From: Beijerinckiaceae bacterium
GTDB lineage: Bacteria; Pseudomonadota; Alphaproteobacteria; Rhizobiales; Beijerinckiaceae
DNA: 64,000 nucleotides
Assembly (NCBI GenBank): GCA_965277735.1
Contig: CBDIDO010000003.1
Location: forward strand, 624,250 to 688,249
Direction: 5' to 3'
Made by a program: the position numbers and the translations under genes. This document shows positions 10,314 through 61,765 of the stretch, piece after piece. The first letter of the stretch is position 1; each line of letters starts with the position of its first letter. The notes under the pieces were generated by a model. That model worked only from the letters and a program-made list of their open reading frames with translations, was not told where the DNA came from and did not search any database.

Positions 10314-10961
10314 TCACGCCGCGCCGAGCTTCCGGCCCGCGAAATACCGTGTGACGGCGACCACGATCGCGACCGCGGCTGCGTGCGCCACCAGATCGAT
10401 CGCCGCGACATCATAAGGGTGGAAGAAGTTGAGCAGGGTTGCCGCCGCGGCCGCGACGGCAAGGCCCGCACACGCCCCGGTGAGCGACGGCGCCAGGCTG
10501 TATCCGCGCCGCAGCATCACGAGGATCAGCGCGGAGAGCGGCACCGAAAACGCGACGATGAACATGAAGCAATGGGTGGAATGCATCGGTGGCATCGGGG
10601 GGACGCCGGGGATCAAGCCACGCGCGCATCCGAGGCCGCTGGCGCCGATCCACAGCGCCAGCCCCGGCAGCGGCAGCAGCGCCCAGCGCGGCGAGCGGTC
10701 CGGTAGATCGAGCTCGAAGGCGGCGATGGCCGCGAGGATCGCGGTGAGAGTCGAGCCAGTCGCCGCGATCCAAAGGTCGGGCACGGCCATCAGCCGATAA
10801 CGCATCTCGGTGAGATCGGCGAAGCTCGCGAGCGCGAGCGCGATCGCCAGCACCACCGCGAGCCAGCAGACGGCGCGGAAGATCGGCGACGGCAGCGGCT
10901 TCACCGGACGCAGCTCGGCGACGAGCTCCTCGATGAGAGTGCGGTGCGCGAGGTCAGACAT
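10314..10961 (-). CDS. nrsF: NrsF-family (DUF1109) membrane anti-sigma factor
   Basis: 215 aa with six predicted hydrophobic segments. N-terminus MSDLAHRTLIEELVAELRPVKPL. It overlaps the 3' end of the upstream ECF sigma gene by 8 nt, the classic sigF-nrsF arrangement. Confidence 0.8.
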   Translation of the reverse strand: MSDLAHRTLIEELVAELRPVKPLPSPIFRAVCWLAVVLAIALALASFADLTEMRYRLMAVPDLWIAATGSTLTAILAAIAAFELDLPDRSPRWALLPLPGLALWIGASGLGCARGLIPGVPPMPPMHSTHCFMFIVAFSVPLSALILVMLRRGYSLAPSLTGACAGLAVAAAAATLLNFFHPYDVAAIDLVAHAAAVAIVVAVTRYFAGRKLGAA

Positions 10962-11535
10962 GGAACTTGCCCTCCCCGGAGAGACGCCCGCGCAGCGCCT
11001 TCAGCGCGCGATGCATGTTGACCTTAAGCGCGCCCGTCGTCTTGCCGGTGGCGAGCGCGGCCTCGGCGAGCGAGTTCTCCTGAAGCGCCAGCAGCTCGAC
11101 CGCCTCGCGCTGGCCCGGCGTCAGCGTGTCGATGGCGGCTTTCAGCTCGCGTCCCACCTCGGCATCCGACCACGAACGGTCCGGCGCGGCGCCGGGATCG
11201 GCGTGCTGCTCGTAGGCCAGCGGCGCGTGGATCTCGCGGCTCGCGCCGCGGCCGGCGCGCCGCAGCGCGTCGATCCCGCGACGCTGGGCGATGACGGTGA
11301 GCCACGCCGTGAACGAGCGCGACGGATCGTAGGTCTGGCGCGCCTTGTGGAGCGTCAGCAGGGTCTCCTGCACGACGTCCTCGATCGCGGCGCCGCGAAC
11401 GCCGGCGCGGGTTGCGGCACGCCGGATGATCGGCTCGCAGGCGTGCAGAAGCTTCTCGTAGGCGCGCTTGTCGCCGGCTTGGACCGAACGCATCAGCGCT
11501 GCCAAAGAGAGATCGTTCGCATCGGAAGGCCGCAT
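10954..11535 (-). CDS. ECF-type RNA polymerase sigma-70 family factor (SigF-like)
   Basis: Region 2 (DVVQETLLTLHKARQTYDPSRSFTAWL) and region 4 (LTPGQREAVELLALQENSLAEAALATGKTTGALKVNMHRALKAL). I chose the ATG at 11535; a GTG at 11577 is an alternative start. Confidence 0.85.
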   Translation of the reverse strand: MRPSDANDLSLAALMRSVQAGDKRAYEKLLHACEPIIRRAATRAGVRGAAIEDVVQETLLTLHKARQTYDPSRSFTAWLTVIAQRRGIDALRRAGRGASREIHAPLAYEQHADPGAAPDRSWSDAEVGRELKAAIDTLTPGQREAVELLALQENSLAEAALATGKTTGALKVNMHRALKALRGRLSGEGKFHV

Positions 11536-11681
11536 GGTGCCGATGATGTGTCCCTGAGCGAGGGCAAGACCAATCACGGTGTCGTGCGCGTGGCAAGAGG
11601 TGCGTAGGGGCCGTCGTCGGACCGCGTTTGCCTCATACTCAGCGTATGATCTGCCGATGGCGGCGGACAGGGAAGGACATC

Positions 11682-13148
11682 ATGGCCTACGAGGCCAACC
11701 TCGGTCTGCTCGCCTTGACGCGCTTCGGCTGCGGCCCGCGCGGCGACGGCGATACCAAGATCGCCTCCGCCGATCCGCGTGGCTTCCTCGCGGCCGAACT
11801 CGCCGAGCCGGGCATCGCACTGCTCGAAGGCCCCGGGCTGCCAACCACGGCTGACGCGCTGCGCCAGCAGTTCGCCTACAAGGAAGAAAAGCAGGTCGCG
11901 CGAGAGGCGAGCCCGCCCACAATGGCGCCGTCGGCCGCCGCACCAGCCATCATGGCTCCGGCCAAGTCGGCAATTGTCGCCGAGATGCAGCCGCCGTCCG
12001 CGAGCGCTACTCCGGCGCCCGCGCCCAAGCCCCCCGCGCCGGCGCAGGTCGTCTATCGCGACGAGGCGCTGGCGCGCATCCGTCGGGGCATCGAGGTGCG
12101 CGCCGGCTTCGCCGAGCGCCTGGTCGCGTTCTGGTCGAATCATTTCTGCATCTCGGCGACGAAGGGGCCGATCGGCCGAATCACGGCGGGGGCGTTCGAG
12201 CGCGAGGCGATCCGCCCGCACGTGCTCGGCCGCTTCGCCGACCTGCTCGTCGCCGTCGAAAGCCATCCGGCGATGCTGCACTTCCTCGACAACACGCGCT
12301 CGGTCGGGCCGAACTCGCGCGCCGGGCAGCGCGGCCGGCGTGGGCTCAATGAGAATTTCGGCCGCGAGATCATGGAATTACATACGCTGGGCGCCGGCAG
12401 CGGTTACACCCAGGCCGACGTCACCAATCTCGCCCGCATTCTGACCGGCTGGAGCTATGTCGGTGCGGAAGGCAGAGGCGGCGACCCGGGCACCTTCGTC
12501 TTTCGTGAAAACGCGCACGAGCCGGGGCCGCTGCCTTTGCTCGGCCGGACCTATCCCGACGCCGGCGTGGAGCAGGGCCGCGCGGCGCTGCTCGACATCA
12601 CCCGCGACCCGCGGACGGCGCGCTTCATCGCGAGCAAGCTCGCGCGGGCCTTCGTCGCCGACGTGCCGCCGGCGGCGCTCGTCGACCGGCTCGCGACGAC
12701 GTTCACGGCCACCGACGGCGACCTTAAGGCCGTCTCGCTGGCGCTGATCGCCGCGCCCGAGGCCTGGTCGCCGACGCTGGCCAAGATGCGCACGCCCTGG
12801 GACGTCATCATCGCGACCAACCGCCTGCTCGGTCATCTGCCAGAGGACCCGGGACAGGTGCTCGGCCCGCTCAGGGTGCTCGGCATGGAGCTCTGGTCGC
12901 CGCCGGGTCCGAACGGCTTTCCGGTCACCGACGTCGCCTGGGCGACGCCCGAAGGCCTGAAGCTGAGGCTCGATTATTGTGCGCTGGTGGCGAGCAAGCT
13001 CAAGACGCCGCCGAACCCGAGCGACCTCCTCGAGCGCCTCGCCGGAGGGACGCCGTCACCCGAGACGCGGACGGCCATCGCCCGCGCCGAGAGCCGCGAG
13101 CAGGGCCTCGCGCTCCTCCTCATGTCGCCCGAAATGCAGCGGAGCTGA
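11682..13148 (+). CDS. DUF1800 domain-containing protein
   Basis: 488 aa from the ATG at 11682 (GGAAGGA upstream). Contains NHFCIS...HPAMLHFLDN..S....NENFGREIMELHTLG, characteristic of DUF1800. It is paired with DUF1501, as usual for this family. Confidence 0.8.
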   Translation: MAYEANLGLLALTRFGCGPRGDGDTKIASADPRGFLAAELAEPGIALLEGPGLPTTADALRQQFAYKEEKQVAREASPPTMAPSAAAPAIMAPAKSAIVAEMQPPSASATPAPAPKPPAPAQVVYRDEALARIRRGIEVRAGFAERLVAFWSNHFCISATKGPIGRITAGAFEREAIRPHVLGRFADLLVAVESHPAMLHFLDNTRSVGPNSRAGQRGRRGLNENFGREIMELHTLGAGSGYTQADVTNLARILTGWSYVGAEGRGGDPGTFVFRENAHEPGPLPLLGRTYPDAGVEQGRAALLDITRDPRTARFIASKLARAFVADVPPAALVDRLATTFTATDGDLKAVSLALIAAPEAWSPTLAKMRTPWDVIIATNRLLGHLPEDPGQVLGPLRVLGMELWSPPGPNGFPVTDVAWATPEGLKLRLDYCALVASKLKTPPNPSDLLERLAGGTPSPETRTAIARAESREQGLALLLMSPEMQRS

Positions 13149-13152
13149 GCCG

Positions 13153-14394
13153 ATGACCCTGTTCGCGCATCCCTCCCGTCGCACCCTTCTCTCCGGTGGC
13201 GGCGCGCTGTTCGGCGCGGCGATGATCCCGAGGATCGCCTCGGCCGCCGGCGCGCGCGATCCGCGCCTCGTCGTCCTCGTCCTCCGCGGCGCGCTCGACG
13301 GCCTCGCCGCCGTCGGGCCGATCGGCGATCCCGACTATGTCGCGCTGCACGGCCAGCTCGCGATGCGCCTGGACGGTCCGGCGGCCGCGCTGCCGCTCGA
13401 CGGCTTCTTTGCGCTCAACCCCGGCATGCCGAATTTTTCGCGCATGGTGCGGGATAAGACCGGTGTGGTCGTTCATGCGACCGCCACCGGCTACCGCGAC
13501 CGCTCGCATTTCGACGGCCAGGACGTGCTCGAGAGCGGCATGCCGGCGCCAGGCTATGTCGAATCGGGCTGGCTCAACCGCGCGCTCTCGGCGCTCCCGG
13601 CCGGCGAGCGCGTCGGCCGCGCCGGTGGCCTGGCCGTCGGCGCCTCGACGCCGACGATCCTGCGCGGCCCCGCACCGGTGCTGGGCTGGGAGCCGGAAGC
13701 GATTCCCGGCGCCAGCGAAGAGCTCGCGCGGCGGGTGCTCGACCTCTACACGCACACCGATCCGAAGCTCGCCGAGGCCATGCGCCAGGGCCTCGATGTC
13801 GAGAAGATCGCGCTGACGAGCGACGGCACGATGGCCGGTCCGGCGATGACACCGAAGCAGGGCGCCGCGCGCCGGCCCGCGGGCATGCGCCAGGCGGCCG
13901 AGGGCGCGGCGCGGCTGCTGGCCGCGAACGACGGGCCGCGCGTCGCCGCGCTCGTCTTCGACGGCTGGGACACGCACGCCGGTGAAGGCGGCGCCACGGG
14001 ACGGCTGATGCAGCTGCTGGGCGGCCTCGACGAAGCCTTCGCGGCCTTCGAGTCGGGCCTCGGGTCGGAATGGAAGCGGACGGTTGTCGTCGCCATCACC
14101 GAATTCGGCCGCACCGCGCATATCAACGGGACCGCCGGCACGGACCACGGCACCGGCACGGTCGCGTTCCTCGCCGGCGGCGCGGTGGCGGGCGGCCGGG
14201 TGATCGCCGACTGGCCCGGGCTGAAGCCGGCGCAGCTCTACGAGGCGCGCGACCTGGCGCCGACGACCGACCTGCGCTCGGTGCTCAAGGGCGTGCTGGC
14301 CGACCATCTCGGCCTGTCCCATTCGGTGCTCGCCCAGGCTGTCTTCCCCGGCACGGTTGCGCTGCGGCCGATGAAGGGGCTGATCGCCGCATAA
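13153..14394 (+). CDS. DUF1501 domain-containing protein (sulfatase/alkaline-phosphatase-like, Tat signal)
   Basis: 413 aa. Tat-like signal SRRTLLSGGGALFGAAMIPRIASA. C-terminal TEFGRTAHINGTAGTDHG motif. The start is 4 nt after the DUF1800 stop. Confidence 0.85.
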   Translation: MTLFAHPSRRTLLSGGGALFGAAMIPRIASAAGARDPRLVVLVLRGALDGLAAVGPIGDPDYVALHGQLAMRLDGPAAALPLDGFFALNPGMPNFSRMVRDKTGVVVHATATGYRDRSHFDGQDVLESGMPAPGYVESGWLNRALSALPAGERVGRAGGLAVGASTPTILRGPAPVLGWEPEAIPGASEELARRVLDLYTHTDPKLAEAMRQGLDVEKIALTSDGTMAGPAMTPKQGAARRPAGMRQAAEGAARLLAANDGPRVAALVFDGWDTHAGEGGATGRLMQLLGGLDEAFAAFESGLGSEWKRTVVVAITEFGRTAHINGTAGTDHGTGTVAFLAGGAVAGGRVIADWPGLKPAQLYEARDLAPTTDLRSVLKGVLADHLGLSHSVLAQAVFPGTVALRPMKGLIAA

Positions 14395-34894: not shown

Positions 34895-37837
34895 CTAATG
34901 CCCCAGCCGCTCGAGCAGGTCGCGCACGTGCACCTGGTCGGCTTTGTAATTGCCGGTCAGCGTGTACATCACGAGGTTGATGCCGCCGCGCAGCGCGATC
35001 TCGTGCTGGCGCGGGTCGCCGGGCGAGAGGGCGTAGAGCGGCTCGCCGTAATCGTCGCCGGCCCAGCCGGCGGCGAGGTCGTTCGATGTCAGGATGATCG
35101 GCGAGACGCCGTCGCCGGAGCGGGCCGGGCGCGCCTCCTTGTCGCCAATCGGCGGCGGCAGCGCCTCGATCCAGGTTTCGCCCGAGGCGTAGCGGCCGAT
35201 GAAATTCTCGATGAGATAGAACGTCTTCGTCACGACATGGTCGGACGGGATTGGCTCCAGCTCCGGCACGTCGACGCCGGCGAGCAGCTGACGCAGCCAG
35301 GCCGTCGCCGGCGTCGGCTCGCCGTTCGGATGCACGGAATTGGCGTCGCGCGTGTCGAACACGATGGTGCCGCCGTTGCGCATGTAGGCGGAGATCTTCT
35401 CGATCGCCTTCTGCGAGGGCTGCGGGTTCGTGGCGACGATCGGCCAGTAGAGCAGGGGATAGAAGGCGAGCTCGTCCTTGGCGGGATCGATGCCGATCGG
35501 ATCACCGGGCGTCAGCGAGGTGCGCGCCGCCAGCGTCGTCGAGAGCGTCGCGAGGCCCTGCTTGGAGATCTCGTCGACCTTGCCGTCGCCCGAGGTGACG
35601 TAGGCGAGCCGCACCGACAGCGCCGACGAGAGATCGTTCGGCGAGACCTTCAGCGGCGCCTGGGCGGCCGCCGCGTCGCCGTCATTGCGAGCGAAGCGAA
35701 GCAACCCAGGGTTGGCAGGGGACAATCGGGCAGAAGGGAGCTCTGCACCCCCTGGGTTGCTTCGCCGTTGGCTCGCAACGACGGACGCAGAGGTCTCCGC
35801 ATGCGCCGGCGTCGGCGCCTTGAGCGTTGCCGTCCCGGCGAGAAGCAGCGCGAGCGCCGCGGCGACCGCGCGACGCGGCGCGGGCCGCAGCTTGCCCCCG
35901 AGCCACAGCGCGGCGAGCGCGTCGAGGCAGAACAGCACGAAGGCGCCGGCGATCAGCCACGGCCGGAGGTCGATCGGCTCGGCCGCCTGCAGCGGCGCCG
36001 ATTCGAACGACAGGCCCGAGAGATCGACCGCCGGGATCTTGTCCTCGGGCGCCAGCGCGTTCACGGCGAGCAGCGAGTCGGCCGCGCCGTAGAAGCCCGG
36101 CGGGTGGTCCGGCGAGGCGACGCCGCCGAACGTGGTGGGGACCGGCTTGGCGGAGGCCGGCGGCGCGCCCAGCGTGCCGAACCCGTCGAGCGTGCGCGAC
36201 GGCGCCACGGTCTCGACCGCCCGGCTCGCCTGCGCGGCCTTGGCCTCGGTCTCGGAGACGGCGCGGGCGCTCTCGCCCGACAGCGCGACGATCTTCTTCA
36301 GCATGTCGACGAAGAGACCGGAGATCGGCAGGTTCGACCAGGTCGTGTCGGCCGTCACGTGGAACAGCACGACGCGGCCTTTTCCGTGCGCGGCGGCGGT
36401 CACGAGGGGCGTGCCGTCGGAGAGCTGCGCCCAGGTCTTGGCCGGCAGGCCCGGCTCGGGCTCGGCCAGCACCTGGCGCGTGATCGTGACCTCGTCCGGC
36501 ACTTTCAGGCCGACGAACGGGCTCGGCGGCTCGAAGGCGGCGAGGTGCTTTGGCCGCTCCCAGGAGAGCGTGCCGCCGAGCACGCGGCCGCCGCGGCGCA
36601 GCTTGACCGGCACCAGATCGTCCGTCGCGCCCGAAAGCCGCGTGCCGGCGAAGCGCACGAGCAGGCCGCCGCCGTCGACCCAGTCGGACAGGCGCTGGCG
36701 GATCGGCCCGGTGATCGTGCCGTAGTCGGCGAGGATCAGCACGGTGACGCGCTCGTCGAGTATCGCGCCGATCGGGTCGGGCGTACCGGGCTTGGGCTCG
36801 TGCACGTCGGCGAAGGGGCTGAGCGCCTTGTGCAGGTAGTACGCGGCGGCCAGCAGCGGCTGCGCCGTGTCGGCGGTGTCGCCGGAGATGATGCCGACGC
36901 TGCGCCGCTTCCAGCGCGAGTCGAGCAGGGTGACCGCGCCGGCCGAGCGCGCGCCGGTGACCTCGAGCCGCGCGATCTGGTTGCGCAGCTCGATCGGCTG
37001 GTCGAACGTCGCGTCGACCGCGTCGCCGGTCTTGAAGACGTAGGGCGCCTCGCCGACCGTCAGGCCCTTCATGTCGAGCGCGCGAACGATGCCGTGCGCG
37101 CCCTCGGTGCCGGCAGCCGAGCGCAGCACCCGTACGGCGAGCTTGTCGCCGTCGTTGCGCGGGTCGGTGATCGCGAGGACGGGCTTCGCGTCGGAGATCA
37201 GGATGGTCTTCACCGGCAGCGCGGCGAGCGCCTGCGCGAAGGCGCGACCGGCGCCGCGCTCGAGCCCGTCCGAGAGCCACACGATGGTCGTGTCGGGGTG
37301 CGACTTCACGAAGCGCCCGATTGCGCCGGCGAGCGCCATGCGGTCCGGCGCGTAGGGCACCGGCGCGAGCGCGTGCAGCCGCTCGAGCGCGGTCGTGGAA
37401 TCGGTCGCGATCACGTCCTTGCCGCCGTCCGACGTCGCGGCGACCGCGACCGTGCGCGACTCCTGGCGTGCGGCCTCGATGCGCTGCGTCGCGGCGATCA
37501 CCCGGCGCTCCCACGTCGGCGCCGCCGCCCAGCTGGTGTCGAGCGCGACGAGCAGCGAGCCGCTGCCCTTGGTGCCGACGCTCAGCGGGTTCCAGATCGG
37601 CCCCGCCATCGCCAGGATGACCAGGGTGGCCAGGGCGAGCCGCAGCAGCAAAAGCCACCACGGCGTGTTGGCGGGCGTCTCGTCCTTGGGCCGCAGGTCG
37701 AGGATCAGCTTCAGCGGCGGGAACGGCACCCGCTCCGGGCGCGGCGGCGTCACCTTGAGCAACACGTACAGCACCGGCAGGCCGGCGAGCGCGACCAGCG
37801 CAAAAGGGATCGTGAAGGCGAGCGGCAGGCCGAGCAT
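34895..37837 (-). CDS. large membrane protein: N-terminal double-transmembrane (BatA-type) domain ... C-terminal DUF4159-like domain
   Basis: 980 aa. N-terminus FALVALAGLPVLYVLLKVTPPRPERVPFPPLKLIL...WWLLLLRLALATLVILAMAGP. The C-terminal domain ends ...NLVMYTLTGNYKADQVH. It is the third gene after MoxR and DUF58. Confidence 0.8.
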   Translation of the reverse strand: MLGLPLAFTIPFALVALAGLPVLYVLLKVTPPRPERVPFPPLKLILDLRPKDETPANTPWWLLLLRLALATLVILAMAGPIWNPLSVGTKGSGSLLVALDTSWAAAPTWERRVIAATQRIEAARQESRTVAVAATSDGGKDVIATDSTTALERLHALAPVPYAPDRMALAGAIGRFVKSHPDTTIVWLSDGLERGAGRAFAQALAALPVKTILISDAKPVLAITDPRNDGDKLAVRVLRSAAGTEGAHGIVRALDMKGLTVGEAPYVFKTGDAVDATFDQPIELRNQIARLEVTGARSAGAVTLLDSRWKRRSVGIISGDTADTAQPLLAAAYYLHKALSPFADVHEPKPGTPDPIGAILDERVTVLILADYGTITGPIRQRLSDWVDGGGLLVRFAGTRLSGATDDLVPVKLRRGGRVLGGTLSWERPKHLAAFEPPSPFVGLKVPDEVTITRQVLAEPEPGLPAKTWAQLSDGTPLVTAAAHGKGRVVLFHVTADTTWSNLPISGLFVDMLKKIVALSGESARAVSETEAKAAQASRAVETVAPSRTLDGFGTLGAPPASAKPVPTTFGGVASPDHPPGFYGAADSLLAVNALAPEDKIPAVDLSGLSFESAPLQAAEPIDLRPWLIAGAFVLFCLDALAALWLGGKLRPAPRRAVAAALALLLAGTATLKAPTPAHAETSASVVASQRRSNPGGAELPSARLSPANPGLLRFARNDGDAAAAQAPLKVSPNDLSSALSVRLAYVTSGDGKVDEISKQGLATLSTTLAARTSLTPGDPIGIDPAKDELAFYPLLYWPIVATNPQPSQKAIEKISAYMRNGGTIVFDTRDANSVHPNGEPTPATAWLRQLLAGVDVPELEPIPSDHVVTKTFYLIENFIGRYASGETWIEALPPPIGDKEARPARSGDGVSPIILTSNDLAAGWAGDDYGEPLYALSPGDPRQHEIALRGGINLVMYTLTGNYKADQVHVRDLLERLGH
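35680..35784. repeat. palindromic REP/MITE-like element, type 1 (GCGAAGCAACCCAGGG arms), 105 bp, in frame inside the CDS
   Basis: Arms CGTCATTGCGAGCGAAGCGAAGCAACCCAGGG ... CCCTGGGTTGCTTCGCCGTTGGCTCGCAACGACGG. Translated as ...VVASQRRSNPGG...NPGLLRFARNDG. A related copy lies at 48294..48375. Confidence 0.75.
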
Positions 37838-38770
37838 CTAGCGCGCTCCCGCCGCGAACAGGTCGGCGCCCTGCTCGAGCCGCATGCGCAGCGCGAGCAG
37901 CGCCTCGGAGGCCGGGCGGTCGGTGCGGTGCAGGGCGAGGCTCCAGCCCTTGGCGCGGACGATCGAGGTGATCGCGTCGCGGTGCGCGGCGAGGCGGCGC
38001 ATGTACATGTCGCGGAACCGCTCCGCCTGGCCGATGCGCATCAGCGCCGACGTGTCGACGTCGACGAACTCGGTATGGCCGGCGAAGGGGAAGGTCTCCT
38101 CGACCGGGTCGGCGATCATCAGCAGATGCCCGCGCGCGCCTCGCGCGGAAATGTCCTCGATGCGCGCGCCGATCTCGCCCGGCGGCGTCAGGAAGTCGCT
38201 GATCATCACGATGCGGACGCGCGGCGGCAGCGGGCCGGCGGGCGGCAGCTCATCGTCGCCGGTGCGGCGGTCGTGGGCAAGCGCCTCGGCGAAGCGCTCG
38301 ATGACGTTGCGCGAGGCGACCGGGCGCGTCAGGCCCGCGAGGCCGACGCGCTCGCCGCCGCGCACCAGGAGATCGGCCGCGGCGAGGCCGAGCACGATGG
38401 CGCGGTCGAGCTTCGACTGCATCGCGAGCGACGAGGCGTAGGCCATCGACGGCGAGCGGTCGATCCAGAGCCAGACGGTATGCGCGGATTCCCATTCGCG
38501 CTCGCGCACGTAGATCCGGTCGTCGCGGGCCGAGCGGCGCCAGTCGACGCCCGAGGCCGACTCGCCGGCGACGAAAGGGCGGAACTGCCAGAAATTCTCG
38601 CCGATGCCGGCGCGCCGCCGCCCGTGCACGCCGTGCAGGGCGGAGGACGCGATCTCCTTCGCCGCCACGACCAGCGCGGGAAGGCGCCGCGCGAGATCGA
38701 GCGCGCCCTGCTGCTGCGGGCCGCCGGGACGGCGCTCGGACTGGTCGAGAAGGCGCGCGGAGACGGGCAT
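37838..38770 (-). CDS. DUF58 domain-containing protein
   Basis: 310 aa. Contains the motif FRPFVAGESASGVDWRRSARDDRIYVREREWE and occupies the canonical position immediately downstream of a MoxR ATPase. Confidence 0.85.
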   Translation of the reverse strand: MPVSARLLDQSERRPGGPQQQGALDLARRLPALVVAAKEIASSALHGVHGRRRAGIGENFWQFRPFVAGESASGVDWRRSARDDRIYVREREWESAHTVWLWIDRSPSMAYASSLAMQSKLDRAIVLGLAAADLLVRGGERVGLAGLTRPVASRNVIERFAEALAHDRRTGDDELPPAGPLPPRVRIVMISDFLTPPGEIGARIEDISARGARGHLLMIADPVEETFPFAGHTEFVDVDTSALMRIGQAERFRDMYMRRLAAHRDAITSIVRAKGWSLALHRTDRPASEALLALRMRLEQGADLFAAGAR

Positions 38771-38777
38771 CAGTTGA

Positions 38778-39785
38778 TCACGAAAATTTCGCCGTCAGCT
38801 TCTTCACCACGCCCTCGATCGTCTCGCCGTCGGCGCGGGCGGAGAAGGTGAGCGCCATGCGATGCTTCAGCACCGGCTCGGCAAGCGCGATGACATCGTC
38901 GAGCGACGGCGAGAGGCGGCCGGAGACGAGCGCGCGCGCACGGGAGGCTAGCATCAGCGCCTGCGCCGCGCGCGGGCCGGGGCCCCAGGCGATCGACTTG
39001 GTGATCGCGGCGTCGCCCTCGCCGGGGCGCGCGTTGCGGACGATGTCGAGGATCGCCTCGATGATGGTCTCGCCGACGGGCAGACGGCGCACGAGGCGCT
39101 GCGTCGCCTGAAGGTCCTCGGCGCTCATTGCCGCCTTGGCGACGGCCTGATGCTCGCCGGTCGTCTCGATGAGGATGCGCTTTTCCGCGGCGCGGTCGGG
39201 GTAGGTGACGTCGATCTGCATGAGGAAGCGGTCGAGCTGCGCTTCCGGCAGAGGATAGGTCCCCTCCTGCTCCAGCGGGTTCTGCGTCGCCAGCACATGG
39301 AAGGGGGCCGGCAGGTCGTAGCGCTCGCCGGCGACCGACACATGGTATTCCTGCATCGCCTGCAGCAGCGCCGATTGCGTGCGCGGGCTGGCGCGGTTGA
39401 TCTCGTCGGCCATCAGCAGCTGCGCGAAGATCGGGCCGCGCATGAACTTGAAGCTGCGCTTGCGGTCGACGCTCTCTTCCAGGATCTCGGAGCCGAGGAT
39501 GTCGGCCGGCATCAGGTCCGGCGTGAACTGCACGCGGCGGGCGTCGAGCCCGAGCACGGTGCCGAGCGTCTCGACGAGCTTTGTCTTGGCGAGGCCGGGC
39601 ACGCCGACGAGCAGGCCGTGGCCGCCGGCGAGCAGCGTCACGAGCGTCTCCTCGACCACCGTCTGCTGGCCGAAGATCACGGTGCCGATCGCGGCGCGCG
39701 CGGCCGCGACCCGGTCCAGCGCGACCTCCGCGTTGCGGGCGACCGCGGCTTCGAGCGAGGTGGCGTTGGTCGCGGGCTCGGCCAT
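38778..39785 (-). CDS. MoxR family AAA+ ATPase
   Basis: 335 aa. Walker A GVPGLAKT, Walker B LLMADEINRASPRTQSALLQAMQE, and the MoxR-type C-terminal lid. Confidence 0.95.
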   Translation of the reverse strand: MAEPATNATSLEAAVARNAEVALDRVAAARAAIGTVIFGQQTVVEETLVTLLAGGHGLLVGVPGLAKTKLVETLGTVLGLDARRVQFTPDLMPADILGSEILEESVDRKRSFKFMRGPIFAQLLMADEINRASPRTQSALLQAMQEYHVSVAGERYDLPAPFHVLATQNPLEQEGTYPLPEAQLDRFLMQIDVTYPDRAAEKRILIETTGEHQAVAKAAMSAEDLQATQRLVRRLPVGETIIEAILDIVRNARPGEGDAAITKSIAWGPGPRAAQALMLASRARALVSGRLSPSLDDVIALAEPVLKHRMALTFSARADGETIEGVVKKLTAKFS

Positions 39786-46185: not shown

Positions 46186-46434
46186 ATGCGAGTGAGCAAG
46201 TGGGGCAACAGCCTAGCGGTTCGCCTGCCGGCCGCCGTCGTCGAACTGCTACAGCTCGAGGAAGGCGACGAGATCGCTATCGAAGTGGCGGGCAAGCGCG
46301 CCCTTGGGGTGGAGCGCGATCGAAACCTGGACGAGCTCTTCGCGCGTCTGGATGCCTTGGGCCTGCAATTGCCGCCGGGATACCGTTTCTCGCGCGACGA
46401 GGCGAATGAGCGCGGCTCGTCGGCCGACGAATGA
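46186..46434 (+). CDS. vapB: AbrB/MazE/SpoVT-family antitoxin (VapB-type)
   Basis: MRVSKWGNSLAVRLPAAVVELLQLEEGDEIAIEV (swapped-hairpin fold signature). GGAGG lies 7 nt upstream of the ATG at 46186. Confidence 0.8.
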   Translation: MRVSKWGNSLAVRLPAAVVELLQLEEGDEIAIEVAGKRALGVERDRNLDELFARLDALGLQLPPGYRFSRDEANERGSSADE

Positions 46435-46844
46435 AGGTGTTCTTCGACACCAACATCCTGGTTTACGCGGCCGTCCAAAGCGATGTCCGACATGCTGTCG
46501 CGCGGCGCTTGTTGGCCGGTGGCGGAGCGATCAGCGTGCAGGTGCTCAACGAGTTCGCCAACGTCGCGCACCGCAAGCTGAAGATGAGCTGGGCCGACAT
46601 CCGTTCGGCTTTGCGCTCGATCAGGTCGTCACTGCCCGCGCCGCCGATGACGGTGGCGATCAACGAGTTGGCAACTGCTCTCGCCGAGCAGCACAAGTTC
46701 GCCTTCTACGACGCCCTGATCATCGCCTCTGCTTTGGAGGCGGGTTGCACCACGCTGTACACGGAGGACATGCATCACGGGATGACAATCCGGCAGAGCA
46801 TGCAGATCATCAACCCGTTCATTGGCCCCGGCACCGGCTCATAG
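46431..46844 (+). CDS. vapC: PIN-domain ribonuclease toxin (VapC-type)
   Basis: 137 aa. MKVFFDTNILVYA (first acidic PIN residue) and later YDALIIASA...LYTEDM. ATGA overlap with the antitoxin stop. Confidence 0.85.
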   Translation: MKVFFDTNILVYAAVQSDVRHAVARRLLAGGGAISVQVLNEFANVAHRKLKMSWADIRSALRSIRSSLPAPPMTVAINELATALAEQHKFAFYDALIIASALEAGCTTLYTEDMHHGMTIRQSMQIINPFIGPGTGS

Positions 46845-49634: not shown

Positions 49635-50336
49635 TCAGAACGGCTTGACGGCGTTGTAGATCTGCTGGCCCCAGCTCGGCTGCTGCACCTCGCTGAGCCG
49701 TCCGCGGCCGCCATACGAGATGCGGGCCTCGGCGACCTTGTCGTAGGGGATCGTGTTGTCCTTCGAGATGTCCTGCGGCCGCACGATGCCGGCGACGTAG
49801 ATCTGGCGGATCTCGAAGTTGACGCGGATTTCCTGCGAGCCCGATACGACGATGTTGCCGTTGGGCAGCACCTCGCTGACGACGGCGCCGACGGAGACCT
49901 TGATCTTCTCGCTGCGGTCGATCTGGCCCTGGCCGGTGGCGCCCGTCGTCGAGGACGAGTTGAAGTCGCCGGCGATCTTGCCCTTGCCGAGCCCGAGGTC
50001 GAACTTGTTGGCCACCTCGTCGTCGAGCGAGGCCTGCGTGTTGTTGCCCAGCGAGGCCTTGTCGTTCATCGAGATCAGGATCGTGATGACGTCGCCGCCC
50101 TTCATCGCGCGCGGGTCGCGATAGAGGCTGGAGCCATCCTGGTAGAGCGAGTTGAAGGCCGGGCGCTGCTCGTCGCCCGCGTAATGGTGCGGCAGGATGG
50201 CGGGCTCGACACCGGCGCCTACGGGGGTGAGCACCGGCTCGCGGCCGATCTCGGTCGGGCGCGCCGCGCAGCCGGAGAGGGTCACGGCTGCGACCGCGAT
50301 GCTCGCGAGCGCGGCGAAGGTCGGGCGCTGGCTCAC
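49635..50336 (-). CDS. flgH: flagellar L-ring lipoprotein FlgH
   Basis: GTG start at 50336 (GTGA overlap with the motE stop). Lipobox VTLSGC. Conserved C-terminal ISYGGRG...QQP.WG motif. Confidence 0.9.
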   Translation of the reverse strand: MSQRPTFAALASIAVAAVTLSGCAARPTEIGREPVLTPVGAGVEPAILPHHYAGDEQRPAFNSLYQDGSSLYRDPRAMKGGDVITILISMNDKASLGNNTQASLDDEVANKFDLGLGKGKIAGDFNSSSTTGATGQGQIDRSEKIKVSVGAVVSEVLPNGNIVVSGSQEIRVNFEIRQIYVAGIVRPQDISKDNTIPYDKVAEARISYGGRGRLSEVQQPSWGQQIYNAVKPF

Positions 50337-50830
50337 AGCTTCTTCTCGTTCGATGCTTGGGCGCCAAGCGGCGTGGCGGCGATGAGCGCGGCGAGCTTGC
50401 CGGCGCGCTCGGGCACGATCTCGTTGAAGATCGCACTCGCCTGGCGCGGGTTGAGCTGGCCGAGCACGGCTGCGGCCATGTCGTCGTCGAGCTGGGAAAT
50501 CTGCGTCGCCGCCGTCTCCGGCCGCATCTTCGCGTAGATGCCGACGAGCTTCTCGGCCGCTTTCTTTTCCAGCGCCTCGCGCTTGCCGATCCAGTCGCGC
50601 AGCTCGGCCGTCTTGGCATCGAGCTCGGCGACGCGCGCCTTGAGGCGCGTCTCCAGCGCGTTGAGCTGCTGCGTCTGCCAGGCGAAGCGCGCGTCGCTCG
50701 CCGCCTTGGCGATGTTCGTGCAATAGCGCTTGACGTCCGCCTCGGTGCTCTGCGCGCGCGCCGGGGACGACAGCGTGAGCGCCAACAGCGCGATCGACGC
50801 CAGGCGGATATCGATGCGCGGCAATGCCAT
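50333..50830 (-). CDS. motE: MotE-family / MgtE-N-like flagellar protein
   Basis: 165 aa from the ATG at 50830. Signal peptide (ALLALTLSSPARAQ), a coiled-coil region and IYAKMRPETAATQISQLDDDMAAAVL. It occupies the motE position between flgI and flgH. Confidence 0.7.
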   Translation of the reverse strand: MALPRIDIRLASIALLALTLSSPARAQSTEADVKRYCTNIAKAASDARFAWQTQQLNALETRLKARVAELDAKTAELRDWIGKREALEKKAAEKLVGIYAKMRPETAATQISQLDDDMAAAVLGQLNPRQASAIFNEIVPERAGKLAALIAATPLGAQASNEKKL

Positions 50831-50915
50831 GTGGCCGGTGATCATGCCGCCGAAGCTAAGGCCACAAACTTGTGTCGGGCTGGCTGACCGCGTCCTGTTC
50901 GACGATTGCTGTGAC

Positions 50916-50955
50916 GGGCTCGCAAGATCCGGCGATCGCCGGACCCAGCGAGCCC
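50916..50955 (-). other. nested GC-rich stem-loop immediately downstream of the Cys-rich peptide gene
   Basis: GGGCTCGC-AAGA-TCCGGCGATCGCCGGA-CCCA-GCGAGCCC: an 8-bp outer stem plus a 16-nt perfect inner palindrome. No U-tract follows on the transcribed strand. Confidence 0.45.
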
Positions 50956-50963
50956 ATTTCACA

Positions 50964-51215
50964 TCACATGCTCTCGAACTTGTGGCCCGACTTCTTGCAT
51001 GGCGCGGCGGCCGTCATCGCGAAGCCCTGGCCCTTGCAGGCGTTCAGCCCCGGTCGGCCGCCCTTGCAGGCGCTCAGGCCCTTGCAGGAATTGGCGGCCA
51101 TGCAATGGCCCATCTTGGGGGCGGCGTCCGCCGTCGTGGTCGTCGCCACGCCGGCAGCGAACAGGCTGGCGGCGGCCGCCGCCATCGCGGCGCCGGATAG
51201 AATCGTCGTCTTCAT
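50964..51215 (-). CDS. small secreted Cys-rich peptide (83-aa precursor, three [SA]CKG motifs)
   Basis: GGGAGGA lies 5 nt upstream of the ATG. Signal peptide MKTTILSGAAMAAAAASLFAAGVATTTTADA. Mature part APKMGHCMAANSCKGLSACKGGRPGLNACKGQGFAMTAAAPCKKSGHKFESM. Very high GC3. Confidence 0.7.
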   Translation of the reverse strand: MKTTILSGAAMAAAAASLFAAGVATTTTADAAPKMGHCMAANSCKGLSACKGGRPGLNACKGQGFAMTAAAPCKKSGHKFESM

Positions 51216-51359
51216 TGCGGTCCTCCCTGGACGATACGACCGGGTTTTTTTCTCCCGTGTCGGCGTCCAAGGTTGCAGATCGCGCGGCGCCCGTAAGTGA
51301 CTCGGGTCACCGCCCTGTCGACGTCTCGCTGGAAATTCCCGCCCAGGCGAAAGCGGCGC

Positions 51360-52469
51360 CTACTGCGTGACGAGGTCCGCCTGCAGCGCGCCGGCCGACT
51401 TGATCGCCTGCAGGATCGCGATAATGCCCGAGGGTTTGAGGCCGATCTGGTTCAGGCCGCCGACGAGCTTGCGGAGCGTCGTGCCGCCGAGCACGCGCAA
51501 CTGGCCGCCGTTCTCGTTGATGTCGACGTCGGTGCGCGGCAGCACCACGGTCTTGCCGCGCGAGAACGGCGCGGGCTGCGAGGCGATCGGCGTCTCGGTG
51601 ACGCGCACCGTCAGCGTGCCGTGGGTGACGGCGACGGTCGAGATCTGCACGTCCTGGCCGATGACGATCGTGCCGGTGCGTGCGTCGATGATCACGCGGG
51701 CCTCGGTGTCGGGCTCGACGAGCAGCGAGCCGATCTCGGCGATGTAGCGCGTCGTGCCCATGTGCGGCGGCAGGGTGAGCGCGACGGAGCGGAAGTCGCG
51801 CTCGCGCGCGGTGCGCATGCCCCAGCGGCGCAGCGAATAGCCGTTGATCGCGTCGACGATGCGGATCGCGGTCGCGAAATCCGGGTTCTTTAGATCGAGC
51901 GCCATCGGCCCGACGTCGCCGGGGCGGTTGGCATTGGGAAGTTCGACCGTCGCGCCGTTGGGGATGCGGCCGACCGTCGGCACACCTTGGTTGACGGTTT
52001 CGGCCTGGCCGACGGCGGCGGTGCCGGAGACGGCGACCTCGCCCTGCGCCACCGCGTGCACCTTGCCGTCGGCACCCGACATCGGGGTCAGCACCAGCGT
52101 GCCGCCCATCAGCGACGTCGCGTCGCCCATGGAGGAGACGGTGATGTCGATGCGCTGGCCGCGGTTCATGAAGGGCGGCAGGTCGGCCGTCACCATCACG
52201 GCGGCGACGTTGCGGCTGCGCAGCGCCTGATTGCGCACGTTGATGCCGAGCCGGTCGAGCATCGACTGCATCGTCTGCTCGGTGAAGGGTGCGTTGCGCA
52301 ACGTGTCGCCGGTGCCCTCGAGCCCGAAGACGAGGCCGTAGCCGACGAGCTGGTTGTCGCGGATGCCCTCGATCGTCGCGATGTCCTTGATGCGCACCGC
52401 GGCGGTGGCGGGCAGGATCGCGGCGGCGGTCGTTACTGCGGCGAGGAAAAGGGTGACGAGCTTTCGCAT
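51360..52469 (-). CDS. flgI: flagellar P-ring protein FlgI
   Basis: 369 aa from the ATG at 52469. Signal peptide, then RIKDIATIEGIRDNQLVGYGLVFGLEGTGD, the FlgI signature. Confidence 0.95.
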   Translation of the reverse strand: MRKLVTLFLAAVTTAAAILPATAAVRIKDIATIEGIRDNQLVGYGLVFGLEGTGDTLRNAPFTEQTMQSMLDRLGINVRNQALRSRNVAAVMVTADLPPFMNRGQRIDITVSSMGDATSLMGGTLVLTPMSGADGKVHAVAQGEVAVSGTAAVGQAETVNQGVPTVGRIPNGATVELPNANRPGDVGPMALDLKNPDFATAIRIVDAINGYSLRRWGMRTARERDFRSVALTLPPHMGTTRYIAEIGSLLVEPDTEARVIIDARTGTIVIGQDVQISTVAVTHGTLTVRVTETPIASQPAPFSRGKTVVLPRTDVDINENGGQLRVLGGTTLRKLVGGLNQIGLKPSGIIAILQAIKSAGALQADLVTQ

Positions 52470-57564: not shown

Positions 57565-58098
57565 ATGCCCCGGAAGCCATTTGACGCCGGCGACGCCATC
57601 GAAGCCCATGCTGCTGCCAAGGCGCGCATCGCAGATGAGCCTACGCGCTCTGTCGTGCACGCCACCTTCCACCTGGAGCGAACCTACGACGCCTCTCCGT
57701 CGCGCGTGTGGAAGGCGCTGACAAGCCCGAGTGCGAAAGCCCAGTGGTTCGCCGCGCCGTCCGAAACGGTCGAAATCATCGAACGTGCGATGGATGTGCG
57801 ACCCGGCGGGCGCGAGCGGCTCAAGGGGCGCTGGGGCGGACGCGTGGTCTCGACCTATGACGCAACCTATTACGACGTGATCGCGAACGAACGGCTGGTG
57901 TATTGCTACGAGATGCATTTGGACGATCGGAAGATCTCTGTTTCCGTTGCGACCATGCTGTTGAAGGCAGATGGAAAACGGACCCAGCTCCAGCTTACGG
58001 AGCAAGGTGCATTTCTCGATGGCTACGACGACGCCGGTTCGCGCGAGCGCGGCACAAATGAACTCTTGAGTCTGCTGGGTCAGGCGCTGACGGTATAA
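57565..58098 (+). CDS. SRPBCC family protein (AHSA1/START-like)
   Basis: 177 aa. Contains FHLERTYDASPSRVWKALTSP...W. and the usual ArsR-SRPBCC gene pairing. GGAGGAAG lies upstream of the ATG. Confidence 0.8.
   Translation: MPRKPFDAGDAIEAHAAAKARIADEPTRSVVHATFHLERTYDASPSRVWKALTSPSAKAQWFAAPSETVEIIERAMDVRPGGRERLKGRWGGRVVSTYDATYYDVIANERLVYCYEMHLDDRKISVSVATMLLKADGKRTQLQLTEQGAFLDGYDDAGSRERGTNELLSLLGQALTV

Positions 58099-58270: not shown

Positions 58271-61765
<3,495 letters not shown>

Follow-up and report, generated by a model that had tools for sequence, protein, structure and literature searches.

The bufA2-like gene and its place in the flagellar cluster

The window, meaning the whole 64,000-nt stretch of Beijerinckiaceae DNA analysed here, carries a small gene for a Cys-rich peptide between flgI and a motE-like gene, on the same strand as both (Table 1). 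Its product reads MKTTILSGAAMAAAAASLFAAGVATTTTADAAPKMGHCMAANSCKGLSACKGGRPGLNACKGQGFAMTAAAPCKKSGHKFESM. The earlier note on this DNA had described an 83-aa ORF with a GGGAGGA ribosome-binding site (RBS) and very high GC3, a Sec-type signal peptide ending in ADA, a mature part of about 52 aa with 5 Cys, 2 His and 4 Met, a DNA unit repeated three times, a 144-nt spacer upstream and a nested hairpin downstream, and all of these were recovered when the sequence was re-read. GC3 amounts to 0.90. The signal peptide, composed of MKTT, a hydrophobic Ala-rich stretch and TTTTADA followed by A, has a predicted A-x-A-type Sec cleavage site judged from its n, h and c regions, and it lines up in the alignment with the signal peptides of all relatives. 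The 11-nt unit GCCCTTGCAGG, which is the reverse complement of the TGCAAGGGC unit, occurs at 51030, 51060 and 51078. The hairpin folds with -47.3 kcal/mol (z = -4.34) and is terminator-like but without a U tract. Scans around the gene for the intrinsic-terminator and sigma-70 promoter consensus returned no site, and an Rfam scan of the whole window returned no match.

Table 1. Features of the bufA2-like locus and of the candidate regulator genes (positions in the window)
Feature	Position	Strand	Remarks
bufA2-like gene	50964..51215	(-)	ORF of 83 codons plus stop; 83 aa
Signal peptide	51123-51215	(-)	codons 1-31; read from sequence
Mature peptide, 52 aa	50967-51122	(-)	Cys38, 44, 50, 60 and 73
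Shine-Dalgarno GGGAGGA	51221..51227	(-)	5 nt 5' of the bufA2-like ATG
Nested GC-rich hairpin	50916..50955	(-)	starts 8 nt past the bufA2-like stop codon
Insertion, ~475 nt	50885..51359	(-)	lineage-specific; upstream spacer, gene and hairpin
flgI (P-ring protein)	51360..52469	(-)	same-strand upstream neighbour
motE-like gene	50333..50845	(-)	same-strand downstream neighbour; weak FliG_M/MgtE_N matches; start at M40 (50845) or M45 (50830) of a long ORF
Spacer, 144 nt	51216-51359		between the flgI stop and the bufA2-like gene
Loose ECF/SigF-like motif GCAACC-N17-AGAA	51250..51276	(-)	possibly a degenerate promoter
ECF sigma gene	10954..11577	(-)	PF04542/PF08281
NrsF anti-sigma gene	10314..10961	(-)	PF06532, 62 bits

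The proposal that the gene had been inserted between flgI and motE is borne out by the comparison of this spacer across relatives. Around 25 related loci from Beijerinckiaceae and other Rhizobiales have motE and flgH after flgI and lack the peptide gene between flgI and motE, even where FlgI is 97% (L009) or 91% (L010) identical to that of the window; across Beijerinckiaceae and related Hyphomicrobiales, FlgI identity to the window ranges from 62 to 99.7%, and by FlgI the window falls into Beijerinckiaceae, near Lichenihabitans MAGs. Only the window and L002, whose flgI orthologue (PF02119) encodes a 99.7% identical protein, carry the peptide gene at this junction, so that it is no ordinary flagellar gene. 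L010 and L011 have CCAGCCCGACACAAG no more than 3-4 nt after the flgI stop codon TAG, whereas the window has it at about 50884, some 475 nt past the flgI stop. The segment of about 475 nt is a lineage-specific insertion, and its GC content (67%) equals that of the host. At its borders, no convincing direct or inverted repeats, target duplication or terminal repeats were found, nor conserved flanks beyond about 50 nt. L009, the species-representative contig nearest to the window, bears the label of a Nakamurella MAG, probably through a binning error; its flgI-motE spacer is masked as exactly 100 N (L009:1144-1243), a length that excludes a 252-nt gene.

L002 has the same insertion together with an extra 630 nt, within which a ParDE-like pair (74 aa and a 97-aa PF05016 protein; L002:10350-10864, corresponding to about 50884-50955 of the window) lies just after the peptide gene. 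On the right, this insert stops exactly where the insertion of the window does, at CCAGCCCGACACAAG. Because the ParDE-like pair occupies the same junction, the flgI-motE spacer seems to have received insertions repeatedly in this lineage; for flagellar biology, the junction tolerates insertions, which comprise the peptide gene and, in the sister strain, also the ParDE-like pair. Elsewhere in the window, a PIN-domain (toxin-like) gene just upstream of the flagellar cluster (46431-46844) and, farther off, a BatA/DUF4159-DUF58-MoxR AAA operon (34895-39785) look ordinary and unrelated to the peptide gene.

A flagellar accessory gene or a spurious ORF might be suspected here, given that the ORF shares its strand with the surrounding flgA-flgI-motE-flgH-fliL-fliP genes and that high-GC DNA contains many false ORFs. 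This explanation is extremely improbable and is effectively refuted by the junctions that lack the gene, by homology to BufA2 proteins, thousands of which occur outside flagellar settings, and by dN/dS values far below 1.

Family membership and the lost cysteine

The sole family match of the 83-aa peptide is NCBIfam NF050166 (BufA2 family periplasmic bufferin-type metallophore), with E = 3.3e-15 over profile positions 1-77 of 79. Together with relatives of about 47-55% identity that sit in precursor-MNIO-DUF2063 operons, this match upholds the earlier view of a bufferin-like precursor. Of the BufA and DUF2282 models, the BufA2 model is matched with a score of 56.0 bits, below its curated equivalog cut-off of 60 bits, while PF10048 (DUF2282, BufA1), carried by some distant matches of the peptide, gives no match to the peptide itself even at E <= 10. 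On NF050166 the short subclade described below scores 54-60 bits, the five-Cys KSPGPG variants 70 bits and the six-Cys members 77-83 bits. A Pfam scan of the peptide yielded nothing significant and one sub-threshold DUF7895 match, and a PDB sequence-profile search yielded no relative of solved structure.

In an alignment of 141 sequences, C38, C44, G46, C50, G56, C60, K61, G62, G64 and C73 are invariant, while N42, K45, Q63 and F65 are at least 90% conserved and are invariant in a 28-sequence alignment. The invariant C, N, K and G positions are common to the window peptide and its six-Cys relatives, and the N-x-C-K-G repeats and the NACKGQGF block are present as in BufA2. The peptide is thus very probably a member of the BufA2 bufferin-precursor family, in a fringe position. 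An AlphaFold2 model from the 141-sequence alignment has low confidence (pLDDT 55.6); it places Cys38 in a strand (35-39) and Cys73 in a helix (70-75), which agrees with the published bufferin topology and is no proof of it, and it lends no structural support to the geometry of a disulfide or a metal site.

The closest relatives, searched in a database of 5.8 billion proteins, form about ten clusters (P0001-P0009 and P0083), which are 64-98% identical to the window peptide and all metagenomic. Against a subclade profile, members score 140-152 bits and the next matches 96 bits, a sharp separation; a degenerate DNA pattern of the subclade motif found 0 matches in 185,579 species-representative genomes. 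What sets the subclade apart is a loop shorter by three residues: GGANSCKGLNACKG of the six-Cys family becomes GG.P---G[LM]NACKG, and GGRP---GLNACKG in the window peptide. CysIV, the fourth of the six cysteines of the family, is lost with this deletion, and the earlier idea that one cysteine had been replaced at R54 has to be corrected on this alignment. For genome annotation, the curated BufA2 cut-off of NCBIfam leaves a genuine subclade annotated as 'hypothetical'.

All five cysteines and their flanking motifs are invariant among the stand-alone copies. Among the nine aligned subclade sequences, His37 is invariant (9/9), His78 is found in six and the terminal Met in eight. Core dN/dS between divergent homologue pairs is 0.07-0.24, by which the ORF is more than a chance reading frame, and the stand-alone copies are under purifying selection. 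Between the window and the near-identical copy of L002, the core differences are few; two are non-synonymous, one change being K51T within a CKG motif, and the dN/dS of 0.58 derives from very few changes. Every stand-alone copy examined comes with an RBS and, just after the stop, a strong GC-rich hairpin of its own; the hairpins are unrelated in sequence. Outside the CDS, homology to the other stand-alone copies extends for about 50 nt on the upstream side and about 45 nt on the downstream side; apart from the RBS region, no upstream stretch is conserved in most of them.

Genomic contexts, operon links and origin

The operons of the six-Cys relatives comprise two tandem precursors, an MNIO gene (PF05114), a DUF2063/HvfC_N gene (PF09836), a creatininase-family gene and a gene for 329 aa. 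The earlier statement that no DUF692 or DUF2063 gene lies within the 64 kb stands: tblastn of the window with MNIO and DUF2063 proteins (two of each), DoxX, creatininase and further operon proteins gave no match, and PF05114, PF09836 and PF07681 were absent from 38 of its longer ORFs in a Pfam scan, which are ordinary chromosomal genes. Such an orphan precursor is less unusual than the earlier note implied, because stand-alone precursors unlinked to MNIO genes make up a 'sizeable proportion' in the literature (PMC12452194) and a subclade member, P0002, is operon-linked.

The gene is stand-alone, without a nearby MNIO gene, in seven of the eight subclade contexts. It occupies the flgI-motE junction in the window and L002, adjoins an IS5-type transposase gene and GapR in L001, lies between genes for an ABC ATPase and Fpg in L003, adjoins a resolvase gene, with DsbD, thioredoxin and Sox genes, in L004, and follows an MFS transporter gene in L102 and UbiB in L103. 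The contigs are metagenomic and mostly Lichenihabitans/Beijerinckiaceae-like in composition, and the locus differs in almost every genome. P0002, which is 72% identical to the window peptide and has the same short loop, is instead encoded in an operon of L104 in the order DoxX, thioredoxin, an 87-aa six-Cys precursor, P0002, MNIO and DUF2063. L105 contains the same operon minus the second precursor, with an MNIO 84% identical to that of L104, and the P0002 gene shares 70% DNA identity with the gene of the first precursor (pre87). The two operons (L104:6366-8710 and L105:9571-11697) differ only by the second, five-Cys precursor, like a snapshot of a duplication. The missing second gene in L105 and the DNA identity of P0002 and pre87 point to a tandem duplication, and the simplest history would be duplication within the operon, loss of CysIV and dispersal as single-gene units. 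L104 stems from the same sample as L002, the tetranucleotide correlation of L104 with the window (0.88) being non-discriminating, and the closest named matches of its MNIO are from Methylobacterium, Chelatococcus and Bradyrhizobium (77-80%).

Five core cysteines are found in 57 of the best 186 relatives, most of which carry CKGGKSPGPGANACKGQGF; in these variants CysIV is substituted while the loop length is unchanged, and at 70 bits they pass as BufA2. A KSPGPG-type pattern scan of metagenome contigs returned 22 loci. In seven of them (L080, L089, L092, L096, L097, L098 and L101) the five-Cys gene lies directly upstream of MNIO-DUF2063, which indicates that CysIV is dispensable in genuine MNIO-linked precursors, and about nine others are stand-alone with sufficient flank to rule out an adjacent MNIO gene. 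The notion that five-Cys peptides are always orphans is ruled out by these seven loci and by P0002 in L104.

In two more of the 22 loci, L087 and L090, the five-Cys gene lies in a copper island, as it does, from a separate look-up, in the case of P0085 (L075-L078). In L075 (1087-12616) the order is SCO1, PCuAC, Cox11, ScsC, DsbD, a trypsin-like protease, NrsF, the peptide, a methyltransferase, YtkA, OEP and CusB, so that P0085 is placed between NrsF and the YtkA-OEP-CusB block; no MNIO gene was found within this copper-homeostasis locus of a stand-alone five-Cys variant. The island context of P0085 may be counted in favour of a copper role of the stand-alone relatives.

A plasmid search gave three distant matches of 50-59% identity, the best being a six-Cys stand-alone copy on a conjugative plasmid of Bradyrhizobium sp. 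Ash2021 (NZ_CP100605.1; L106:7896-8156), which indicates that unlinked precursor copies are also plasmid-borne. This BufA2-like gene, annotated 'hypothetical protein', adjoins a DUF255/thioredoxin gene between IS701 and IS3 transposases.

Alternatively, the gene might be a hitch-hiking passenger that arrived recently by transfer at a permissive intergenic site, is poorly expressed and almost or entirely functionless at flgI-motE, and is heading for decay. The insertion is very recent, being confined to the window and its twin with 99.7% FlgI identity and absent already at 97%; the junction in L002 also took up a toxin-antitoxin-like pair, two homologues adjoin a transposase or resolvase gene, the promoter match discussed below is degenerate, and the two non-synonymous core differences, with K51T and the dN/dS of 0.58 (very few changes), would fit decay. 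The ORF is nevertheless intact, with a strong RBS and a host-like GC3, the subclade as a whole is under strong purifying selection, and read-through from the actively needed flagellar operon on the same strand is likely. A mere passenger is therefore improbable.

Regulation, maturation and comparison with known bufferins

The SigF site of Caulobacter is GTAACC-N16-CGAA (PMC3511200), and both buf operons of Caulobacter are under SigF control (PMC11626156). In the loci compared here, almost every operon-linked precursor gene has the strict motif GTAACC(AAA)-N15-16-CGTA at a distance of 95-263 nt upstream, and so do several KSPGPG-type genes that stand alone; loci with the motif include L005, L007, L080, L089, L091, L093, L099 and L104. 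Set against a background rate of about 0.03 per kb, this makes the family-level link to a SigF-type promoter real. In tandem precursor pairs, the strict ECF-type motif often stands ahead of each copy.

Upstream of the stand-alone short-subclade genes, the strict motif GTAACC-N15-16-CGTA was found in 0 of 7. The window, L001 and L002 share only GC[AG][AG]C[CG]-N17-[CA]GAA at -61 to -67, which lies in a conserved GACACGGG.GAAA stretch; L001 and L002 have GCAGCC/GCGACG-N17-CGAA at this position. With up to two mismatches, the Caulobacter consensus is matched 73 times across the window (0.57 per kb per strand), and the degenerate GCAACC-N17-AGAA motif alone is no evidence of a promoter. Of the SigF link drawn by the earlier note, the presence of the motif and of a SigF/NrsF pair and the link at family level survive, while the match in the window is weak and of a kind that is common by chance. 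The SigF/NrsF-type pair at 10314-11577 is a candidate regulator. Transcripts could just as plausibly come from the flagellar operon by read-through, given the same-strand position of the gene between flgI and motE.

The SigF/NrsF pair is divergent from a DUF1800/DUF1501 gene pair (10314-14394 in all). The window has a single strict GTAACC-N15-CGTA match, at 12383-12407 on the minus strand; it falls within the DUF1800 gene, is oriented towards sigF and is possibly a chance occurrence, since 8 of 100 shuffles also yielded one match. The only other match to the broader SigF-type pattern, GCAACC-N16-CGAA at 57862-57887 (plus strand), lies about 400 nt upstream of a pyruvate carboxylase gene (58271-61765) and is probably accidental.

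In Buf2, CysI and CysVI are kept for a disulfide and the central cysteines bear -4 Da thiooxazole modifications, for which BufB and BufC are necessary and sufficient; the precursor is recognised via its core peptide and not its signal peptide, and copper binding requires the heterocycles (PMC11626156). None of 864 complete genomes with Buf2 precursors is without an MNIO gene, and for unlinked precursors the authors propose modification in trans while explicitly leaving 'not modified' open (PMC12452194). Recognition through the core peptide and the 0/864 count make trans-modification plausible for the window peptide, and the lost cysteine is compatible with maturation, as judged from the MNIO-linked five-Cys KSPGPG variants and the operon-linked P0002.

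On these grounds, the peptide would be a divergent stand-alone BufA2 paralogue that is exported by Sec, matured in trans and active in periplasmic copper buffering, a chain that taken as a whole is rather likely, if far from assured. It would have begun when a tandem duplicate of bufA2 in a DoxX-thioredoxin-bufA2-MNIO-DUF2063 operon lost its fourth cysteine and its copies dispersed as single-gene units, one of which landed between flgI and motE in a Lichenihabitans-like Beijerinckiaceae lineage. Transcription would start from a degenerate SigF-type promoter in the insert, arise by flagellar-operon read-through, or both. A BufB (MNIO)/BufC (DUF2063) pair encoded elsewhere in the genome would convert Cys44, Cys50 and Cys60, each in a conserved N/S-x-C-K-G motif, into 5-thiooxazoles in trans and before export. 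The Sec system would then export the 83-aa precursor, with cleavage after ADA31, Cys38 and Cys73 would form the family disulfide, and the mature 52-aa peptide with three thiooxazoles and one disulfide would chelate excess periplasmic copper. Unmodified, the mature peptide has a calculated monoisotopic mass of 5225.43 Da, which the disulfide alone would lower by 2.0 Da and the disulfide together with three thiooxazoles by about 14.1 Da.

Possible, yet rather doubtful, is an unmodified periplasmic Cys/Met/His-rich peptide, the stand-alone subclade having escaped MNIO maturation, with free thiols, Met and His (GHCM, GHKFESM) serving as a Cu(I)/thiol buffer or in some other new role. The predominance of contexts without a nearby MNIO gene, the missing strict promoter, the lowest scores on the BufA2 model, the invariant His37 and the frequent His78 and terminal Met, the DsbD, thioredoxin and Sox genes near the L004 copy and the option left open for unlinked precursors (PMC12452194) would all suit such a peptide. 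It fits less well with the invariance of N/S-x-C-K-G and NACKGQGF, better explained by enzyme recognition than by simple thiolate ligation, with an operon-linked subclade member, with the need of bufferin metal binding for thiooxazoles and with the occurrence of GHCM also in the six-Cys precursor of the L104 operon. A more specific form, in which the short five-Cys subclade is an MNIO-independent, unmodified and mobile periplasmic Cys/Met/His metal or redox buffer that is here coupled to flagellar-operon read-through, is distinctly unlikely.

What favours the trans-matured copper-buffering peptide is the conservation of the core motifs together with the operon-linked subclade member. Against it count the maturases not seen within 64 kb, the 56 bits against a cut-off of 60, the strict promoter missing at seven stand-alone loci, K51T in L002, the low pLDDT and a tie of L104 to the organism of the window that the correlation of 0.88 does not establish.

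The gene is a rare divergent variant of an already known bufferin family and no separate system, and neither it nor its setting overturns current understanding. A natural experiment is offered by precursors in which one of the four modified cysteines is missing and which are present both within MNIO operons and as dispersed single genes. They are ready substrates for asking how many thiooxazoles copper binding needs and whether BufB/BufC act in trans on unlinked paralogues, and the bufferin copies bear on how RiPP precursor genes duplicate and spread.

Among known systems, BufA2/Buf2 (NF050166, 'Buf_6/12Cys' with six or twelve core cysteines, Caulobacter vibrioides CCNA_03001; PMC11626156, PMC12452194) shares with the window peptide a length of about 85 aa, a Sec signal peptide, the positions of the first and last Cys, the repeated N-x-C-K-G motifs and the NACKGQGF block, its six-Cys members of canonical operons being 47-55% identical. 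The window peptide differs in having five instead of six Cys, CysIV having gone with the three-residue deletion, in scoring under the 60-bit cut-off, and in being encoded without an MNIO or DUF2063 gene within 64 kb and without a strict SigF-type promoter, and its subclade is known from metagenomes only. BufA1/DUF2282 (PF10048) proteins are, like BufA2, Sec-exported, MNIO-modified, Cys-containing periplasmic copper metallophores, but they have four Cys and another motif pattern, unlike the window peptide. Its closest large group, at 55-62% identity, is that of the KSPGPG-loop BufA2 variants (for example P0085 and P0115; BufA2 by score), which likewise lack CysIV and are both stand-alone and operon-linked, whereas their loop is full-length (CKGGKSPGPGANACKG against CKGGRPGLNACKG), their 70 bits exceed the cut-off and many retain the GTAACC-N15-16-CGTA promoter.
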